A stretch of DNA of 64,000 nt from an uncultured Ruminococcus sp. (GTDB taxonomy: Bacteria > Bacillota > Clostridia > Oscillospirales > Ruminococcaceae), in contig CACZJT010000005.1 in assembly GCA_902781565.1 (NCBI GenBank), positions 11,902-75,901 of the forward strand. Direction: 5' to 3'. The position numbers were made by a program, and so were the translations under genes. The notes under the pieces were generated by a model that saw only the letters and a list, made by a program, of their open reading frames with translations, made no database searches and was not told where the DNA came from. Positions 23,966 through 41,106 of this stretch are shown here, piece after piece (the first letter of the stretch is position 1; each line of letters opens with the position of its first letter).

Positions 23966-24054
23966 AAAATATTCACTCCCTGTGAAATTTGTGCAGTGAC
24001 GGCGGAACCTCTGAGCCGAAAAATGCGAGGGTCTCCCTCCCCCCGTGACCGCTG

Positions 24055-24396
24055 TCAGACCGTGTGCCAGTCGAAGGTCTGCGGCAAGAGCCTGTTGGAC
24101 ACGACTTCCGGTGCTTTGGTGAACTGCCTTTGCCCCGACAGCTTATCTGATTTCTGACGGTTACAGCAGAAATGCGCGAGCTGCAAGTTCGCAAGATCGG
24201 AAGGGTGCCCGCCTTGATTTATCGGGATAATGTGGTCGATCGTCGCGGACATCGGGTGCGGATATTTAAGCGACTTATCGACGGGGCGCCCGCATATCCC
24301 GCATACCTCCTGCGAGGCGAGTATGCGTTTTCTGTTGGTCTCAAACTGTCCGCGATGTCCCTTGAAGACCTCTGCGCGCGAGCGCGTATCGGGCAT
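24055..24396 (-). CDS. Packaging-associated HNH endonuclease
   Basis: CGICG..VD...TIDHIIP..GG...NLQLAH.CCN..KSDK; first gene of the late region. Confidence 0.85.
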   Translation of the reverse strand: MPDTRSRAEVFKGHRGQFETNRKRILASQEVCGICGRPVDKSLKYPHPMSATIDHIIPINQGGHPSDLANLQLAHFCCNRQKSDKLSGQRQFTKAPEVVSNRLLPQTFDWHTV

Positions 24397-24559
24397 ATAT
24401 CGTCATCTCCCGTTCGTGTCCGCGCTCCCGTGCGGGGGGAGGACGGTGCTTCGCCGTTCCCACGGTAAGAGTAGGGCGGGTCCAAAAACAACACCCCCGT
24501 TTCTCGCGGAGGTGCTGTTGGTGGGTGCTATTGTCGGAGTACGTACTGTCTCCAGTTTA

Positions 24560-24594
24560 ATTATAACACATAAAAACCGACACAATCGACACAA
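24560..24594 (-). promoter_or_regulatory. Putative late promoter with activator direct repeats
   Basis: CGACACAA x2 (24578-24594) just after the activator gene, then TGtTATAAT with no -35. Confidence 0.5.
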
Positions 24595-24596
24595 CT

Positions 24597-24986
24597 TTAT
24601 CCCACGAGGAATCTTTTTATCCTGTTTCTCACGCAATGTTCGGACATTCCTCCACCCAACATCATGGCTACCTGCCAATAAGTCGGCTTGCGCTCGCCCG
24701 AAATGAATTTCAGCTCGAACATTCGGCGCGTCTGAGGGTCGGGTATCTCCTGCACGAACCGCTCCACCTCCGTGATCTCTGCTTCGAGGGCGGCGATCTC
24801 ACGCTCTAACGCCGCGACCCTCGGGGTCGAGGGATAGCCCTCCGCATAGCGGGTGGTTTTGGCGAAACTCGGCGCTCCCCGCGAGCCCGACACGGGCTCA
24901 CAAACGTAATGCTCCGCAAGCTCTTCCCGCAGACGGTCAAGTTTAAGTCCGATGCTTCGGTAGGCTCTCAGTCGGTCAAGGGTCAT
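24597..24986 (-). CDS. Late transcriptional activator (RinA/ArpU-like)
   Basis: Coiled coil then IPDPQTRRMFELKFI...TYWQVA HTH; last gene of the replication module. Confidence 0.7.
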   Translation of the reverse strand: MTLDRLRAYRSIGLKLDRLREELAEHYVCEPVSGSRGAPSFAKTTRYAEGYPSTPRVAALEREIAALEAEITEVERFVQEIPDPQTRRMFELKFISGERKPTYWQVAMMLGGGMSEHCVRNRIKRFLVG

Positions 24987-24992
24987 CGTGTA

Positions 24993-26392
24993 TCACTCCT
25001 TCTCTTTGACAGTTCCTGTACTTCCTTTCGCCGCTCTGATACGCGCTTTAAGGCTCTCGATCAGTGCGTCCTGGGCGGCGTCCTTGCTTTGAAGTGCCGC
25101 TATTACGTCCATGTCACGGCTGTCTTTTACTACCAGCTCATGTACAAAGACCGCAGAGGACTGACCCTGCCTGTGCAGTCGCTTGTTCGCCTGTTGGAAA
25201 AGCTCTAAGCTCCAGTTCAGTCCGAACCATATCACATGATTGCCGCCCGCCTGCAAGTTCAGACCGTAGGCGCAGGACGCGGGGTGCGCCAGCAGCACAT
25301 CGAGCTCGCGGCGGTTCCAGAGTTCCGCGTCGGCGGCGGTCTTTAGTACGCGCACGCGCTTCTTCGCCTTTGCGAGAGCCGCAGTCAGCCGTTCGAGATC
25401 ATGACGGAAATTGTAGAATACCAACGCAGGCTGACCGTTCAGGCGCTCCATAAGCTCCATAAAGGCTTCGATCTTGCAGCCGTGCAGCGGGAGCCACTTG
25501 TCCGAATCGGTGTAGACCGCCCCGTTGCAAAGCTGCAAGAGCTTGTTGCTGAGAGCTGCCGCACTCCCCGCGTCTATGACGTTCTCGTCGATGGTCAGCA
25601 GCATTTCGCGCTCCATTTCGTCATACGCCTTCTGCGCCTTCGCGTCAAGACGGACGGGAACGAGGTCGTAAACGAGGTCGGGCAATTGCAGGTAATCCTC
25701 CGACTTCATGCTTATGCAGATGTCGCTTATCCGCCGCTGTATCTCGGCAGCCGCGCCCTCGTTTATCTCATAAGTCGTGAAATGCCCGCCGTGGGTGTTC
25801 GCTCGGAAAAAGCTCTCGCGGAAAGCCGTTATGTTCCTGCCGAGCCGTGCGCCCTCGTCCAGAAGATAAAGCTGCGCCCATAAGTCCGCAAGCCCGTTCG
25901 GCGCGGGCGTTCCCGTCAGCTCGACTATGCGCGATACGTGAGGTCTTATCCACGTAAGAGCCTTGAACCGCTTCGCCCGATGATTCTTGAAGCTGCTGCT
26001 CTCGTCGATAACGACCATATCGAAAAACCACGAATTACGAAGATAGTCCGCAAGCCATACAACGTTCTCCCGGTTGATAACGTAAATGTCGGCGGGAGTG
26101 TACACCGCCCGTATACGCTGCTTTTCGCTGCCGAGAATAAGGCTGAACCGCAGGTGCTTCAAATGCTCCCACTTCGCTGCTTCGGTGCTCCACGTTGCTT
26201 CAGCGACCTTCTTTGGCGCGATCACAAGTACGCGGCGTACCGCAAAACGATTGTAGATAAGCTCGTTCGCCCCTGTCAGCGTGACGACTGTTTTTCCTAA
26301 GCCTAACCCATGTCCAAGAACAGACCCAACATCGGCGTATCAAGTATGCGCCCGATACAGTAGCGCTGGTATTCATGCGGCTTGAACATCAT
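24993..26392 (-). CDS. SNF2-family helicase interrupted by a 5-nt insertion with in-frame TAG (26303-26305); 464 aa if bypassed
   Basis: MMFKPHEYQ...LFLDMG*, then shifted frame LGKTVVTL...VVIDESS...LTGTP...GLNLQ...RLHRQGQ. Confidence 0.85.
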
Positions 26393-26883
26393 GTGGCATC
26401 ACCCTCTTTCTTTTTGTCGTGCTCCGCGTGCCATGCAGCGTGCTCCGCTTGACTGCTGAAAACCATAAGATTTTCGCGGTCGTTATTTTGCTTGTTTCCG
26501 TCAATGTGGTGAACGACCTCACCGCGTTTCAATTCTCGCCCCAGTGAAAGCTCCGCGACGGTTCTGTGAAGATGCCGCCCAAAGAATTTCGGATAGCTTT
26601 TGCGTTTTGCCGGTGTTAAAAGATGCGCTTTGCGTATTTTCAGACGAACCGCGGGGGTCATTCTGTTCGGATTTAGCGCCGCGTTTAAGCGCTTCATATT
26701 CTGCGACATTCCCGCATAATTTTTTAGCGTCGTATATCCCGACGGATTTTTTGTTTTTGACGAGAATGAAGCCAAACAAGCTCTGCCACAAAAATTGTGC
26801 TTTGTGATTTTGGAAGGATACTTCCAAATCTCTGCGCCGCAAAAGTCGCATTTTACGGCTATCTTACCCTTTGCGAAATTCAA
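26389..26883 (-). CDS. Free-standing HNH (homing-type) endonuclease
   Basis: CxxC...FCxxxC zinc finger; HRTVAE..LGR.L..GEVVHHIDGNKQNN..ENL; AT-richer than neighbours. Confidence 0.85.
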   Translation of the reverse strand: MNFAKGKIAVKCDFCGAEIWKYPSKITKHNFCGRACLASFSSKTKNPSGYTTLKNYAGMSQNMKRLNAALNPNRMTPAVRLKIRKAHLLTPAKRKSYPKFFGRHLHRTVAELSLGRELKRGEVVHHIDGNKQNNDRENLMVFSSQAEHAAWHAEHDKKKEGDAT

Positions 26884-27154
26884 GCTCTATCACCTCTCTC
26901 ACTTTTGCTTTCGTGTCGATGTCGGCGTAGACGGTACAGCCCAAAGCCCTAAGCTCCGCCTGCCGTTTCTTCTGCTGAGGGGTCGAGGTCTTTCCCTCCG
27001 ATTTCGTCTCAACGAAGAAAACGCCGCCGTTCGGCTTTATCACGATGCGGTCGGGAACCCCCGCGCACCCGGGGGACACCCACTTGTACGAACGCCCTCC
27101 GCGAGCCTTCACCTCGTCCCGCAGGAACGCTTCTGTGTCTTTTTCCGATTGCAT
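26864..27154 (-). CDS. VRR-NUC domain nuclease
   Basis: EKDTE...KWVSPG.AGVPDR...FVETK. Confidence 0.88.
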   Translation of the reverse strand: MQSEKDTEAFLRDEVKARGGRSYKWVSPGCAGVPDRIVIKPNGGVFFVETKSEGKTSTPQQKKRQAELRALGCTVYADIDTKAKVREVIELEFRKG

Positions 27155-27285
27155 ATATATCTCCTTCCGTTACTTCGCAACTTCGCGCGTGCACGCGTAT
27201 ATATTTATTAAATTAGGCGCGTTAGGCGCTATAGGTATATCCCCTATTCCCTCTAATCCCTCTGTTTTATATTTTTAAAGAAAAT

Positions 27286-27447
27286 AAAGTAACAAAGTAA
27301 CAGATAGAGAGAAAAGCGTGGTATTTCGCTATAATCTGCTGTTACTTTAGCTGTTACTTTCCCGTTTTTTCGGTAACACCAAGTAACAGAGTAGGTGTTA
27401 CTTGTTTTTTCACTTTTTAGAGAAAGTAACAGCAGAAAGTAACAGAA
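27286..27447. repeat. Iteron-like GTAACA cluster (9 copies, both orientations), putative replication origin
   Basis: 6 x GTAACA and 3 x TGTTAC in an AT-rich gap downstream of the primase-helicase. Confidence 0.6.
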
Positions 27448-27448
27448 A

Positions 27449-29872
27449 TCAGCGATCAATTTTACGGATATAACCCTTTTGCAGACCGTATACTGCGCCG
27501 AACCTTATGCCGTTTTTCGACTTCTCCCACCCCTCCAAGTGGGCTAAGATACCGTTGATCTCGGCGGCGTCCTGTCGCTTGAAATACTTCATATCGCCGC
27601 CCAGCGCCTCGCACCATATCTCAATGGCGCACACGCGGTCGAGCTTTTTGAAGCTAACGCCCTCTGGGTTCATCAGCCCCGAACGGTAGCGCCGCCGTGC
27701 GTCGAGGTCGAGCTTATCCCAGTTGTCGGGTACCTCGCGTTCGACGAATTCGCGGATAATGCCCTCCTTCGCCGAGTGTACCTGGTGGCTCTCCTGCGCC
27801 GCCCTTGCCGCCGCCGCGAGCGCCCCCTTGTCCATATACAGGGATTCGCCCAGCCGCCAGCCGACCAGCGCCTCCGCCCATATCTGCGGCACCTCCGCGG
27901 ACAGGTCGTCGAACACCGACTTTGCAGGCTCATGCACCATGCAGTCTATCGGCAGGAAGCGCCGAGAGCCCGTCTTGTCCCGCAGAAACTCGTCATCGTT
28001 CGTCGTCCCGAAGAACACGCAGCGCCGCGGATAACGCCCAGTGCGCCGTCCGTAGGGCTCGCGGTAGATGTCGTCGGTCTTTGAGAGGAACTGCTTGACG
28101 GCGTTCTCCTCCGAGCGGTTCAGCCCGTTGAGCTCCTGCAATTCTATCAGCCACGAGCCCTGTATCATCTCGCAGGCTTCCTTGCCCTCGAATGTGTTCA
28201 GGCTGTCGTTGAACCAGTCCGCGCCGAGGAGCCGAAGCAGGGTGCTTTTCCCTATGCCCTGCGCCCCGACCAGTATCGGCATGGTGTCGTACTTGACCCC
28301 CGGCTGCATGGCTCTCGCTACCGCCGCGCAAAGGCTCTTTCTCGCCACGGCTCTCGTGTAGGGCGTATCCTCGGCGCCAAGATAGTCGATGAACAGTGTG
28401 TCCAGCCGCGGCACTCCGTCCCATTCGGAAAGGGCGTTAAGATACTGCTGAACGAGATTGACCCTGTTCAGCTCGCAGTACAGCAGGAATCCGTCGGCTA
28501 TCCGCTCCTTGCCCGTAATGCCGTAGACCCTCTCCATGTAGCAGCGCAGCCCCGCGTCGTCGGCGTCCTTCCAGTCCCGCCGCCTGCCCGATGTATCCCA
28601 GGGCAGCTTCCCCGTTATGTAGAGCCTGTTGGAGAACTCATCAAACACCGCCTTCCCCCGAAGCTGCGGGTCGTTCTCAAGCACCAGCAGTACGTTGTCT
28701 ATGGTCTTCAGCGGCTTTCCCGTTTCGGGCGACAGCAGCAGCCGCGTTATCCATTCCGTGTCCTCCTCCTTTGCGATCTCCGCCGTCGGCTCGCCGAAAG
28801 CCGATACTGCCTTTTCGTAACGCTCCCTGCTCATGAGCCGCGCCACCCTTTCGTCGCTCACGGCGAGGCGGCACATCTCTGTAAAGCTCGGCAGCTTGTT
28901 TGCGGGAGTATCGGGCTTTGCTTCGGCGTCCTTCTCGGCGAACAAATGCAGCCTAACGAGGTCGAATGCGTTCACGAGCCTTCCGCCCGCAGGGTCGGTG
29001 GCGTGGTGAGAGTACAGGAACCTGCCGTCCTCGTAAAGCACCGCACCGCCCGTTGTCGAGCCGCCCGTAAAGGTGTAGCGTCCCTCGCCCGCAGCCGTGT
29101 ATCTGTCGGGCAGATACTCCGCAATGACTGTCGGAATATCGTACACACGGCAGAAGGCACCCACGGCGCCCGCCTTTTCGGTGGGGTCTTTCTGCCGCAC
29201 GAGCTTGCCCGTGCCGTTACCACGCGGGATATTCTGCGCCGTCAGTCCCGCCCAGCTCGTGACGTCCCGCCAGTCGGCATACATGGCGAGGAGCCCGTCC
29301 GCGTCGGCAAAGGGCTTATCCGCGCAGGTGTAAACAAAGCTGCTGTCCGCGCAGCATGAGGGATAATACATCAGCCTTGAAGCCTCGAACGTAGTCTTAT
29401 CGCAGAGTTCAAGACCTATTATCTCCCCCGCCTTTCGGGCTATCGGCTCATATTCGTCCGCCGTGACCGTCCTCGAAAGCGGTATCAGCACCCGCAGGCG
29501 CGGAGCCTCGGGGGAGTGCTTTCTCGTCGAATACACGCAGTACCCCACCCCGAGGGTGTCGAGCTTCATGAGCACGCTGTCCGTCTGCCCCGCGGGAATG
29601 TTATCGAGGTCGAGAGTAATGATATCCCGTCCCGTCACGTCGCAGGCACGGCGTTTCTCGCCTCTGAACGTCCCCGCCACGTAGCCGCCGACGTCCTTCA
29701 GCTCGTCCTGCCTTGCCTTCGGCAGATCGCGGTACTGCGCAAGAGTTTCGGTACTTCTGTGAACGTTCCCCAGCCGCCCCCAGAACTCCGAGAGCGTGAG
29801 CGTTTCGGGCTTCCACACTGTAGCCTTACGGCTCGCCCCGACCGTTATCGTTATCATTCTGTCAAATTGCAA
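27449..29872 (-). CDS. Primase-helicase (VirE/VapE family)
   Basis: KDVGGYV, TLDLD, YSTRKH, GAQGIGKST, FFGTTN..FLRDKTG.RRF. Confidence 0.9.
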   Translation of the reverse strand: MQFDRMITITVGASRKATVWKPETLTLSEFWGRLGNVHRSTETLAQYRDLPKARQDELKDVGGYVAGTFRGEKRRACDVTGRDIITLDLDNIPAGQTDSVLMKLDTLGVGYCVYSTRKHSPEAPRLRVLIPLSRTVTADEYEPIARKAGEIIGLELCDKTTFEASRLMYYPSCCADSSFVYTCADKPFADADGLLAMYADWRDVTSWAGLTAQNIPRGNGTGKLVRQKDPTEKAGAVGAFCRVYDIPTVIAEYLPDRYTAAGEGRYTFTGGSTTGGAVLYEDGRFLYSHHATDPAGGRLVNAFDLVRLHLFAEKDAEAKPDTPANKLPSFTEMCRLAVSDERVARLMSRERYEKAVSAFGEPTAEIAKEEDTEWITRLLLSPETGKPLKTIDNVLLVLENDPQLRGKAVFDEFSNRLYITGKLPWDTSGRRRDWKDADDAGLRCYMERVYGITGKERIADGFLLYCELNRVNLVQQYLNALSEWDGVPRLDTLFIDYLGAEDTPYTRAVARKSLCAAVARAMQPGVKYDTMPILVGAQGIGKSTLLRLLGADWFNDSLNTFEGKEACEMIQGSWLIELQELNGLNRSEENAVKQFLSKTDDIYREPYGRRTGRYPRRCVFFGTTNDDEFLRDKTGSRRFLPIDCMVHEPAKSVFDDLSAEVPQIWAEALVGWRLGESLYMDKGALAAAARAAQESHQVHSAKEGIIREFVEREVPDNWDKLDLDARRRYRSGLMNPEGVSFKKLDRVCAIEIWCEALGGDMKYFKRQDAAEINGILAHLEGWEKSKNGIRFGAVYGLQKGYIRKIDR

Positions 29873-39657: not shown

Positions 39658-41106
39658 ATGAAAACTGCCGCCGCGTATATCCGCGTTTCCACCGACGATC
39701 AGGTGGAGTTTTCGCCCGACAGCCAGCTCAAAGCCATTCGCAAGTACGCCAAGGACCATGACTTCGTACTGCCTAAAGAGTTCATTTTCGTTGACGAGGG
39801 CATAAGCGGACGCACCGCCGCAAAACGCCCCGAGTTCAACCGCATGATCGGCACGGCTAAGTCTACCCCGAAGCCATTCGACACCATACTGCTCTGGAAG
39901 TTCAGCCGTTTCGCCCGCAACCGTCAGGACAGTATCGTTTACAAATCCATGCTCCGCAAGCAGTGCGGCATTGATGTTGTGAGCGTGTCGGAACAGCTGG
40001 GCGAGGACAACACCTCTATCCTCATCGAAGCGCTCATCGAGGCTATGGACGAATACTACAGCCTGAACCTCGCCGAGGAGGTAAAGCGCGGCATGAACGA
40101 GAAGTTCTCCCGCGGAGGTGTGGTCTCACAGCCACCTTTCGGCTACAAGATGAAGGACGGCATTTTCGCTCCCGATGAGAACGCCGCGCCGATCGTCCGC
40201 ATGATCTACGCCGACTATCTCGCAGGTAAGGGCGCGCGTCAGATCGCTAAGGAGCTGAATCACAAGGGCATTACCACGAGCAAGGGAGGGAAGTGGGAGA
40301 ACCGCACCGTCGAGTACGTCCTGACCAATCAGACCTACCTCGGCAAAATGCGCCGCAGCACCGACCCGCGTAATAAGTACGACCGCTTCCACGAGGACGT
40401 GAACCTCGTTGACGGCGCTCACGAGCCTCTGATCTCCGAGGAGACCTTCGCCGCCGTGCAGGAACGCCGCGCCGAGATCAAAAAGACCTACGGCAAATAC
40501 GCTCGTCATGCTCCCGTGAATTTCATGCTTAAAGGCGTAGTCCGCTGTGACAATTGTGGTGCGACCCTCGTTGCCACCGCCAACCGCGACCGCCTGCAAT
40601 GCCATAACTACAACCGCGGCACCTGCAATGTCTCGCATTCCGTGAGCATTGAAGCCCTCACGCGGCTGGTGCTCGACAAGCTCCGCGCGGATATGGAGTG
40701 TGCCGATACCGAGGTGGAGATCGTGACCACTGCCGCCGCCGAGAACGTTCACGAGGACGACACGGAGTTCCTGCTCTCGCGCGAGTACAAGAAGCTGGAG
40801 CGTATCAGGGAAGCCTACGAAGCGGGTATCGACACCCTCGATGAGTACAGGGTGAACAAGCAGAAGATACAGCGGCGCATTGACGAGATCAGAGCCGAAG
40901 CGGAAGCCGCGAAGCCTGCTCATGTCCTGACCTCCGAGGAGAGACAGCAGGCAGTCCGCGCGAGGATACGTCTCGGGCTGGACACTCTTGCTTCCCCCGA
41001 TGTGAGCGAGACCACCAAAAACGAAGTCCTCCGCTCACTGGTAGAGCGCATAGTTTTCGTCAAGCCGAAAAAGGTGATAGAGATAGTCTATAAGGGCGAT
41101 TTTTAG
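39658..41106 (+). CDS. Large serine recombinase (integrase)
   Basis: YIRVSTDDQ catalytic Ser, SRFAR, recombinase domain, CDNCG zinc ribbon, coiled coil; ends next to the att junction. Confidence 0.96.
   Translation: MKTAAAYIRVSTDDQVEFSPDSQLKAIRKYAKDHDFVLPKEFIFVDEGISGRTAAKRPEFNRMIGTAKSTPKPFDTILLWKFSRFARNRQDSIVYKSMLRKQCGIDVVSVSEQLGEDNTSILIEALIEAMDEYYSLNLAEEVKRGMNEKFSRGGVVSQPPFGYKMKDGIFAPDENAAPIVRMIYADYLAGKGARQIAKELNHKGITTSKGGKWENRTVEYVLTNQTYLGKMRRSTDPRNKYDRFHEDVNLVDGAHEPLISEETFAAVQERRAEIKKTYGKYARHAPVNFMLKGVVRCDNCGATLVATANRDRLQCHNYNRGTCNVSHSVSIEALTRLVLDKLRADMECADTEVEIVTTAAAENVHEDDTEFLLSREYKKLERIREAYEAGIDTLDEYRVNKQKIQRRIDEIRAEAEAAKPAHVLTSEERQQAVRARIRLGLDTLASPDVSETTKNEVLRSLVERIVFVKPKKVIEIVYKGDF

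Follow-up and report, generated by a model that had tools for sequence, protein, structure and literature searches.

A stop codon inside the Walker A motif of a prophage helicase

How a helicase is made from a gene with an in-frame stop inside its Walker A motif is the question raised by a locus in the 64,000-nt stretch of DNA from an uncultured Ruminococcus sp. that we analyzed (hereafter the window). On the minus strand, the Walker A region reads ATG GGT TAG GC TTA GGA AAA ACA, so that the motif DMGLGKT is broken by an insert. The first frame of the helicase (ORF1, 26303..26392; 29 codons plus TAG, protein MMFKPHEYQRYCIGRILDTPMLGLFLDMG) begins with an ATG at 26392 that overlaps the TGA of an HNH endonuclease ORF, and ends on the candidate take-off codon GGT (Gly29, 26306..26308). 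It is followed by the 5-nt coding gap TAGGC (26301..26305), in which the stop TAG (26305-26303) shares a base with the candidate landing codon GGC (26303-26301). ORF2 (24993..26300) runs from LGKT to its stop and encodes an SNF2-type protein (PHROG 62; SNF2-rel_dom and Helicase_C), the second frame being open as GLGKT... over 436 aa and ending at 24993. A skip of 5 nt yields a 464-aa helicase with the exact DMGLGKT. The sequence and coordinates of the insert given in the initial annotation of the window were all reproduced on the minus strand.

The gene belongs to an apparently complete prophage in which endolysin, tail, capsid, portal, terminase, repressor and serine-type integrase genes are present (the integrase at the prophage end, window 39658-41103), within a host assembly of 2.87 Mb. 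The gene order in the module, by Pfam, is DUF2800, ssDNA-binding protein, PolA, VapE, VRR-NUC, HNH and SNF2-type helicase. The VRR-NUC nuclease gene (26864..27154, minus strand) forms the upstream flank and is found in alleles with and without the HNH-bearing element described below. A second short HNH gene (PF01844, window 24055-24396), unrelated to the first and probably of the terminase-associated type, lies 5' of the head genes. A group I or II intron was rejected as the source of the interruption, Rfam giving two chance matches elsewhere and none within 24000-28000, and the gap measuring only 5 nt; an intein was likewise rejected, Pfam detecting no intein domain around the insertion.

To exclude an assembly error, we relied on two lines of evidence. 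First, contigs of runs X2, X3, X5 and X7 cross the site ungapped at ~91-95% identity (X2 and X3 belong to one study): those of X3 and X5 cover the whole 361-nt stretch with 0 gaps at depths of 141 and 90, that of X7 spans 26168-26902 with 36 differences and 0 gaps relative to the window, and that of X2 has 4 gaps, none at the insert site. Second, the identical insert is present in metagenome contigs L379 and L380 (91% aa). Because contigs from other studies and L379/L380 share the insert at the same length, it is real rather than an assembly artefact, and it is not peculiar to this genome, a doubt voiced when the insert was first noticed. The contig of run X1, a possible source run, is identical at the site but not independent of the window, and that of RNA run X20 retains the insert, ends only 22 letters past it and may derive from DNA. 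Alleles without the HNH block also occur in runs X7 and X8, the X8 allele being without the five bases too.

Interrupted helicases recur and are under selection

With the downstream helicase protein alone as query, three collections yielded 234 loci, 222 of them scorable and 12 unscorable. The helicase is interrupted at this site in 33 of the 222 (9/76, 14/75 and 10/71 per collection, the rows being partly redundant), and in 32 of the 33 an in-frame stop directly follows the last sense codon. Four pattern scans returned at least 120 matches each; the matches listed give no frequencies, and 95 of the 240 matches of two scans were non-helicases and were removed before counting. Among the matches listed were at least 48 distinct Gly/Asp inserts and at least 19 distinct Leu/Met inserts, 4-10 nt long, and the insert family comprises at least 67 sequence versions. 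Inserts lie after Gly29, Leu30 or Gly31 and rarely after Asp27 or Met28, and gap lengths of 4, 5, 6, 7, 8, 9 and 10 nt account for 22, 37, 32, 6, 8, 5 and 3 of 113 alleles, covering all three frames. The initial annotation had proposed a GGN-stop-GGN arrangement between DMG and LGKT in phage homologues; this arrangement was indeed found, but other sites are used as well and the length varies from 4 to 10 nt. The ends of the gaps are not conserved (A, C, G and T all occur). As three different stops and three frames are involved, stop-codon reassignment or suppression was discarded; no tRNA genes were found in the window and no suppressor anticodon among the host tRNAs.

Named carriers include Pd_22F and phiPaco (5 nt), Carmen17 (10 nt), S4-5 (9 nt), NatCom_29429 (4 nt) and PBC1 (6 nt), whose annotations begin the helicase downstream or split it. 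Take-off at Met28 is represented by a single case (L695, ATG TAG C CTG, 7 nt), the one real candidate among 14 helicases in a Met take-off scan with at least 120 matches listed, and take-off at Asp27 by another (L525, GAT TAG..., 10 nt). Some inserts place a sense codon after the take-off codon, reading GGT CTA CGGC in L775, GGT TGG C in L802/L803 (also L316 and L342) and GGT CCA GC in L848; these are possibly hungry-codon variants or dead alleles. In a distant SNF2 subfamily (ADEMGLGKT, 24-32% identity), the same Leu-stop-Leu gaps occur in L556, L569, L584 and L610.

Of 129 insert alleles, 127 retain the whole downstream frame, compared to 183 of 187 intact alleles. We estimated dN/dS from 34 pairs of insert alleles, chosen so as not to overlap, and from 29 intact pairs. 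It came to 0.16 (ORF1), 0.095 (codons 32-55) and 0.086 (codons 56-95) with the insert, and to 0.093, 0.067 and 0.079 over the same segments without it. ORF1 itself is made up of native helicase residues. Purifying selection, anticipated in the initial annotation for the downstream frame, holds there and indeed for both flanks of the gap. Moreover, the insert is found in the plaque-forming phages Carmen17 and PBC1 (PMC6430321). We conclude that interrupted helicases are real, widespread and under selection. That the insert kills a dispensable helicase, perhaps as a collateral of homing, is what an in-frame stop inside an essential motif would suggest, yet the intact and constrained downstream frames, the plaque-forming carriers, a host assembly with no close second copy (the best being a 28% match) and the complete appearance of the remaining prophage make a pseudogene exceedingly improbable.

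A second alternative holds that translation ends after a 29-aa peptide and starts anew in ORF2, so that the helicase consists of two chains. It draws on the strong ribosome binding site (RBS) of ORF1 and the selection acting on it, and on an in-frame TTG that overlaps the stop in the 5- and 8-nt alleles with TGA, phiPaco being annotated in this manner. On the other hand, no ATG, GTG or TTG precedes Lys32 in 89 of 118 representatives, and the first start codon downstream in the window allele, GTG 26225, lies past GKT, yet codons 32-55 show the low dN/dS given above. On balance, we regard separate chains as very unlikely.

Codons for take-off and landing match

For codon counts, alleles were clustered at 90%, and the patterns allowed any GGN take-off. 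The Gly-class take-off codon is GGT or GGC in 116 of 116 clustered alleles, whereas GGY is found in 41/92 and 52/92 intact alleles. At Gly29 (site A) the landing codon is GGN in 39 of 39 alleles and never GGG; at Gly31 (site B) it is GGN in 46 of 77, the other 31 are AGC, GAC, AGT, AGA or CGC, and in nearly every such case a gap of 4 or 5 nt makes the landing codon overlap the stop. Leu take-offs are followed by landings in the same codon family in 19 of 22 cases (CUN to CUN in 17/20, never UUR; UUA to UUA in 2/2). Matching extends mostly to two bases only, since 21 of 116 landings are GGA, a codon unread by tRNA-Gly(GCC), and tRNA boundaries are crossed by several of the CUN pairs. In the window the pair is GGU/GGC, and the host encodes tRNA-Gly(GCC). 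Codon-level matching is invisible to protein constraint and thus points to tRNA re-pairing.

It could be argued instead that recoding depends on gap length, with a -1 shift for 5 and 8 nt, a +1 shift for 4, 7 and 10 nt and readthrough for 6 and 9 nt, the enzyme tolerating one to three extra loop residues (here DMGLGLGKT). Such a scheme would accommodate the 31 mismatched site-B landings as well as the 4-nt gaps, which always read UGA C or UAG C and resemble the prfB shift site, and the upstream helix described below could stimulate shifting too. However, it has to combine three mechanisms with a single, conserved geometry of the helix, while a single hop repairs every gap length from 4 to 10 nt, which favors the hop. 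In addition, the longer loop occurs in no open-frame allele (0/183; the Tyr8-Lys32 distance is 72 nt in 183 of 183 open-frame alleles with a parsed anchor), CUN-CUN and UUA-UUA matching is left unexplained, and the stop is UAA in 17 of 116 Gly-class alleles. We therefore consider length-dependent recoding unlikely as a general explanation, though the 4-nt class may be +1 frameshifts.

The gap accompanies an HNH nuclease and its cassette

Alignment with the empty allele L381 and the joint at 26377-26875 in run X7 define an inserted block (26378..26874, minus strand) that comprises the HNH body, a new helicase RBS and the first codons. The HNH endonuclease itself (26389..26883, minus strand; 164 aa) contains two CxxC pairs and an HNH_3 domain (PF13392, E 5.8e-13); C12, C15, C32, C36, H125, H126, D128, N133 and N138 are invariant in 23 relatives, and the catalytic motif is intact according to Pfam and the alignment of relatives. 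A PDB search with the HNH protein gave no useful match. The nuclease begins with the original start of the helicase, TTG AAT TTC, the entry point being after helicase codon 3 with the empty alleles L381 and L486 as reference; the site is also empty in Wes44 and S4-4. In exchange, the element supplies a new strong RBS, new first codons, recoded codons ~17-31 and the gap. Its extended Shine-Dalgarno sequence (SD; GAGGGTGAT, 26398..26406, minus strand; family consensus GGAGGTGAT) bears a GTGATG[CT] signature that is present in 99 of 120 insert alleles versus 5 of 100 intact alleles.

Among protein-found clusters, the insert is present in 9 of 11 with HNH versus 13 of 111 without (p 1.8e-6, uncorrected), and independent pairs agree (5.9 the same way versus 0 opposite, of 8; p ~0.03), so that HNH presence predicts the insert, as the initial annotation had foreseen. 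The coupling runs in one direction: HNH carriers are mostly inserted, but most insert alleles, 80 of 110 clusters, are without HNH. These HNH-less insert alleles nonetheless keep the RBS signature of the element (68/84), which follows the insert among HNH-less rows in 13.2 versus 0.1 of 18 independent pairs, and in L487 the HNH is cleanly lost while gap, RBS and start are kept. The opposite ordering, in which the hop is real but regulatory (slow termination being required for helicase synthesis) and the HNH is just a passenger, would fit the many clusters that retain a gap without HNH. Yet it runs against the element RBS signature in those very alleles, against the HNH carriers that use substitution instead of a gap (see below) and against close relatives that manage without a gap; we thus deem it hardly credible as the primary role, although a secondary regulatory use of the hop may exist. 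Phage NatCom_29429 has its HNH (L967:1798-2299) annotated as two fragments, the picture of a nuclease in decay next to a retained 4-nt gap.

We also searched from the nuclease side, with a profile built from helicase-adjacent HNHs; of the 535 HNH-family loci we examined the best 80, and each of these 80 precedes this helicase. Within these best 80, 55 helicases have stop inserts (one scored by eye, one oddly parsed), 4 have inserts without an immediate stop and 21 are uninterrupted; the motif is altered in 20 of these 21 (Met28 to Cys in 16) and canonical in 1. Gapless HNH carriers with replaced Walker A residues include L788, L800, L808, L812, L835-L837, L516, L522 and L965 (StAB), the replacements being Met28 to Cys, GLGLGKT and GLGMGKT. 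Substitution in Walker A is thus an apparent second route to self-immunity. In a search with a Cys-type helicase as query, run to exclude a clade effect, 5 of 5 HNH rows were DCG and 50 of 50 canonical rows were without HNH, and in an order sample of 400 genomes 4 of 4 HNH rows carry an insert or Cys. It follows that HNH and an unaltered motif almost never coexist.

Mobility is indicated by a tree of 176 rows of at least 380 aa each, on which the insert is gained or lost at least 35 times. Window and L379 are separated by 7 differences over 487 HNH bases and by none over the 36 bases of codons 17-28, but by 33 over 260 VRR-NUC bases; for L463 versus L504 the counts are 10 over the 36 bases of codons 17-28 and only 8 over 1260 downstream. 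Both patterns argue for a co-converted tract at codons 17-28. L463 and L504 are near-identical prophage helicases, one gapped and one not, in one complete Lacrimispora sinapis genome. The HNH adjoins the interrupted gene and moves with it; the earlier idea of a minimal homing cassette is supported as far as HNH and insert are concerned, but the cassette is not minimal, bringing along an RBS, a start and a long-range RNA helix.

A predicted RNA helix ends next to the take-off codon

Folding of 26405-26260 pairs helicase codons 2-4 (AUGUUCAAG, 26381..26389, minus strand) with a 3' arm (CUUGGACAU, 26310..26318, minus strand) just 5' to the take-off codon, from which it is separated by one unpaired base. 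In the window, this segment folds with no unusual stability (z +0.51). At least 8 of the 9 pairs can form in 27 of 39 site-A and 59 of 74 site-B alleles versus 4/98 and 8/98 intact alleles (L492, with +1 base, and L294, L525, L258 and L181 were left out of these sets), and the register moves by 6 nt with the site, such that the 3' end lies one base before take-off at both sites. Two-sided changes number 42 versus 13.6 in shuffled controls and at most 3 in slid controls (36 Gly29 alleles), RNAalifold predicts the helix unprompted, and a Met/Ile change at codon 2 is coupled to the wobble base of Asp27 in 38 of 39 alleles. On the tree, each pair has only ~4-7 independent changes, which always run the expected way but reach significance for no single pair; against synonymous shuffles of codons 23-29, duplex energy did not differ significantly (p 0.10 and 0.15). 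The covariation and the register shift point to a putative stimulatory RNA structure 5' to the take-off codon. Five intact alleles that keep the element RBS (L044, L050, L417, L502 and L513) are probable reversions; the helix is lost in four of the five, which ties it to the gap, and is full in L513. A best duplex ending at the take-off codon itself was tried and fails once downstream bases are allowed (1/39 and 1/74).

The SD is followed by a conserved GCC (26395..26397, minus strand) that could pair with the take-off codon, the landing codon or the SD. In predicted folds its partner is split among these three and the unpaired state, and for this reason we kept an anticodon-mimic step out of the main explanation. 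GCC could pair with the take-off codon, the last pair being G-U, in 35 of the 36 site-A rows. Predicted folds join the take-off GG to the 5' region in only 8 of 39 site-A and 3 of 74 site-B alleles. In L082 and L644, where take-off is CUG, the triplet after the SD is CAG rather than GCC, as the anticodon-mimic idea predicts; in other Leu alleles this triplet pairs only with the first base of the take-off codon. In some folds the SD pairs with post-landing codons, where codon use is unbiased.

These pairings also bear on a scenario in which the gap is excised from the mRNA by a trans-acting nuclease and ligase or by a ribozyme, with the helix as guide. A terminal G-U at the cut is a feature of the group I P1 helix, which the GCC-take-off pairing in 35 of 36 rows recalls, and some folds bulge the gap out. 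Against excision, the gap ends are unconserved, every stop lies in the frame of ORF1, Rfam detects no family in 24000-28000 and the codon-family matching points to tRNA, and we judge it quite improbable.

A putative programmed bypass within a mobile cassette

Taken together, these comparisons lead us to favor, as the probable explanation, a programmed stop-hop bypass of the gap, inside a mobile cassette whose HNH nuclease would cut uninterrupted copies. The ribosome would pause once GGU occupies its P site and UAG its A site, while the exiting mRNA would zip onto codons 2-4 of the same message and pull the mRNA forward. The peptidyl-tRNA-Gly(GCC) would then leave GGU and re-pair at GGC five bases on, and coding would resume at TTA to give the 464-aa helicase with its motif restored. 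At the DNA level, as we infer from the sequence comparisons, the HNH would cleave the uninterrupted allele: the gap would render the carrier immune to its own nuclease with the protein unchanged, self-immunity would allow the cassette to spread between co-infecting phages, and the HNH could later be deleted while gap and helix persist.

A more elaborate version is conceivable, though we advance it tentatively: in widespread micro-bypass cassettes, the start region might fold onto the codons before take-off, the GCC acting as an anticodon mimic that strips tRNA-Gly(GCC), and the SD, parked beside the gap, setting the 4-10-nt landing window. If true, nature would offer dozens of sequence variants of bypassing, in-frame stop-hops would have their first natural examples, and homing nucleases would have a fourth means of immunizing an invariant motif, after introns, inteins and split genes.

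Relation to known bypass systems

A T4 MobA element with the gene 60 bypass was reportedly described by Bonocora in 2011. In the accessible text on that system, a free-standing HNH likewise sits next to a non-coding gap that opens with a stop, within an invariant motif of a gene for DNA metabolism (bioRxiv 10.1101/2022.08.31.505936; PMC7026636). The codons for take-off and landing match and are movable by a codon and RNA pairs 5' of take-off (PMC7026636), and the element gives a new N-terminus, the nuclease often being lost while the gap stays (bioRxiv 10.1101/2022.08.31.505936). As far as these descriptions go, the differences are equally clear. The gap measures 4-10 nt instead of ~50 nt, the target is the Walker A motif of an SNF2-type helicase, mainly in Firmicutes phages, instead of the topoisomerase large subunit, and the HNH has 164 aa here versus 269-279 in T4 MobA. 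The helicase is not split, the HNH taking its start codon, whereas the T4 topoisomerase subunit is split with CTE/NTE tails. The take-off tetraloop hairpin, AU-rich gap and mini-SD that those accounts give for gene 60 were not seen at the helicase site, where the predicted helix, unlike that of gene 60, spans a long range and encloses ORF1 in full, and the Met to Cys substitution as an alternative to the gap also sets the helicase cassette apart. On the best reading, the helicase cassette would work like T4 MobA/gene 60 but be unrelated in build. In the portions available to us, refolding of the mRNA behind the ribosome is said to favor forward sliding in T4 (PMC7026636; bioRxiv 2024.12.09.627546), and by analogy we infer that the helix of the helicase cassette may have this role. 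Such a long-range helix beside a bypass gap is new in this analysis and had gone unseen in the initial annotation.

Other systems share single traits, judging from the accessible parts of the papers. The terminase of Streptomyces phage Hau3 resembles the helicase in its short blocks (7-10-nt bypass) in an essential phage gene with length-invariant junctions (PMC10732093), and its bypass was shown by MS in E. coli with UUA changed to UAA (PMC10732093); it differs in its trigger, the hungry codon UUA, and its proposed regulatory role, and the available sections make no mention of homing (PMC10732093). Synthetic E. coli stop-hops (Weiss 1987) also use matched codons around a stop, 9 nt being decoded as one residue as in our 6-nt class, but have no dedicated helix or mobile element in the account consulted (PMC5009743). 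The same 2016 review, in its accessible text, states that no natural in-frame stop-hop occurrences are known (PMC5009743). Magnusiomyces mitochondrial byps are many short mobile inserts that are bypassed with a loose landing match, but as described there they are mitochondrial, with an unassigned A-site codon and a take-off stem-loop inside the insert (PMC5009743, PMC7026636). In the largely non-subscription literature that we searched, no description of this helicase bypass system was found.

Natural bypassing has so far rested on T4 gene 60, the Hau3 terminase and yeast mitochondrial byps. Here, a common phage helicase appears to need a stop-hop in ~15% of sampled relatives (33/222). Carmen17 and Wes44 are 95% similar and share the same host (PMC6430321); Carmen17 has the HNH and a 10-nt gap, and Wes44 is without both. 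This cultured pair renders the system testable: with a covarying RNA signal and cultured plus and minus phages on a safe host, what governs take-off, landing and forward drive can be put to a direct test. The locus illustrates a way in which a homing nuclease could keep an invariant motif safe with neither intron nor intein, and many phage helicases that are annotated as truncated or as pseudogenes are probably whole.
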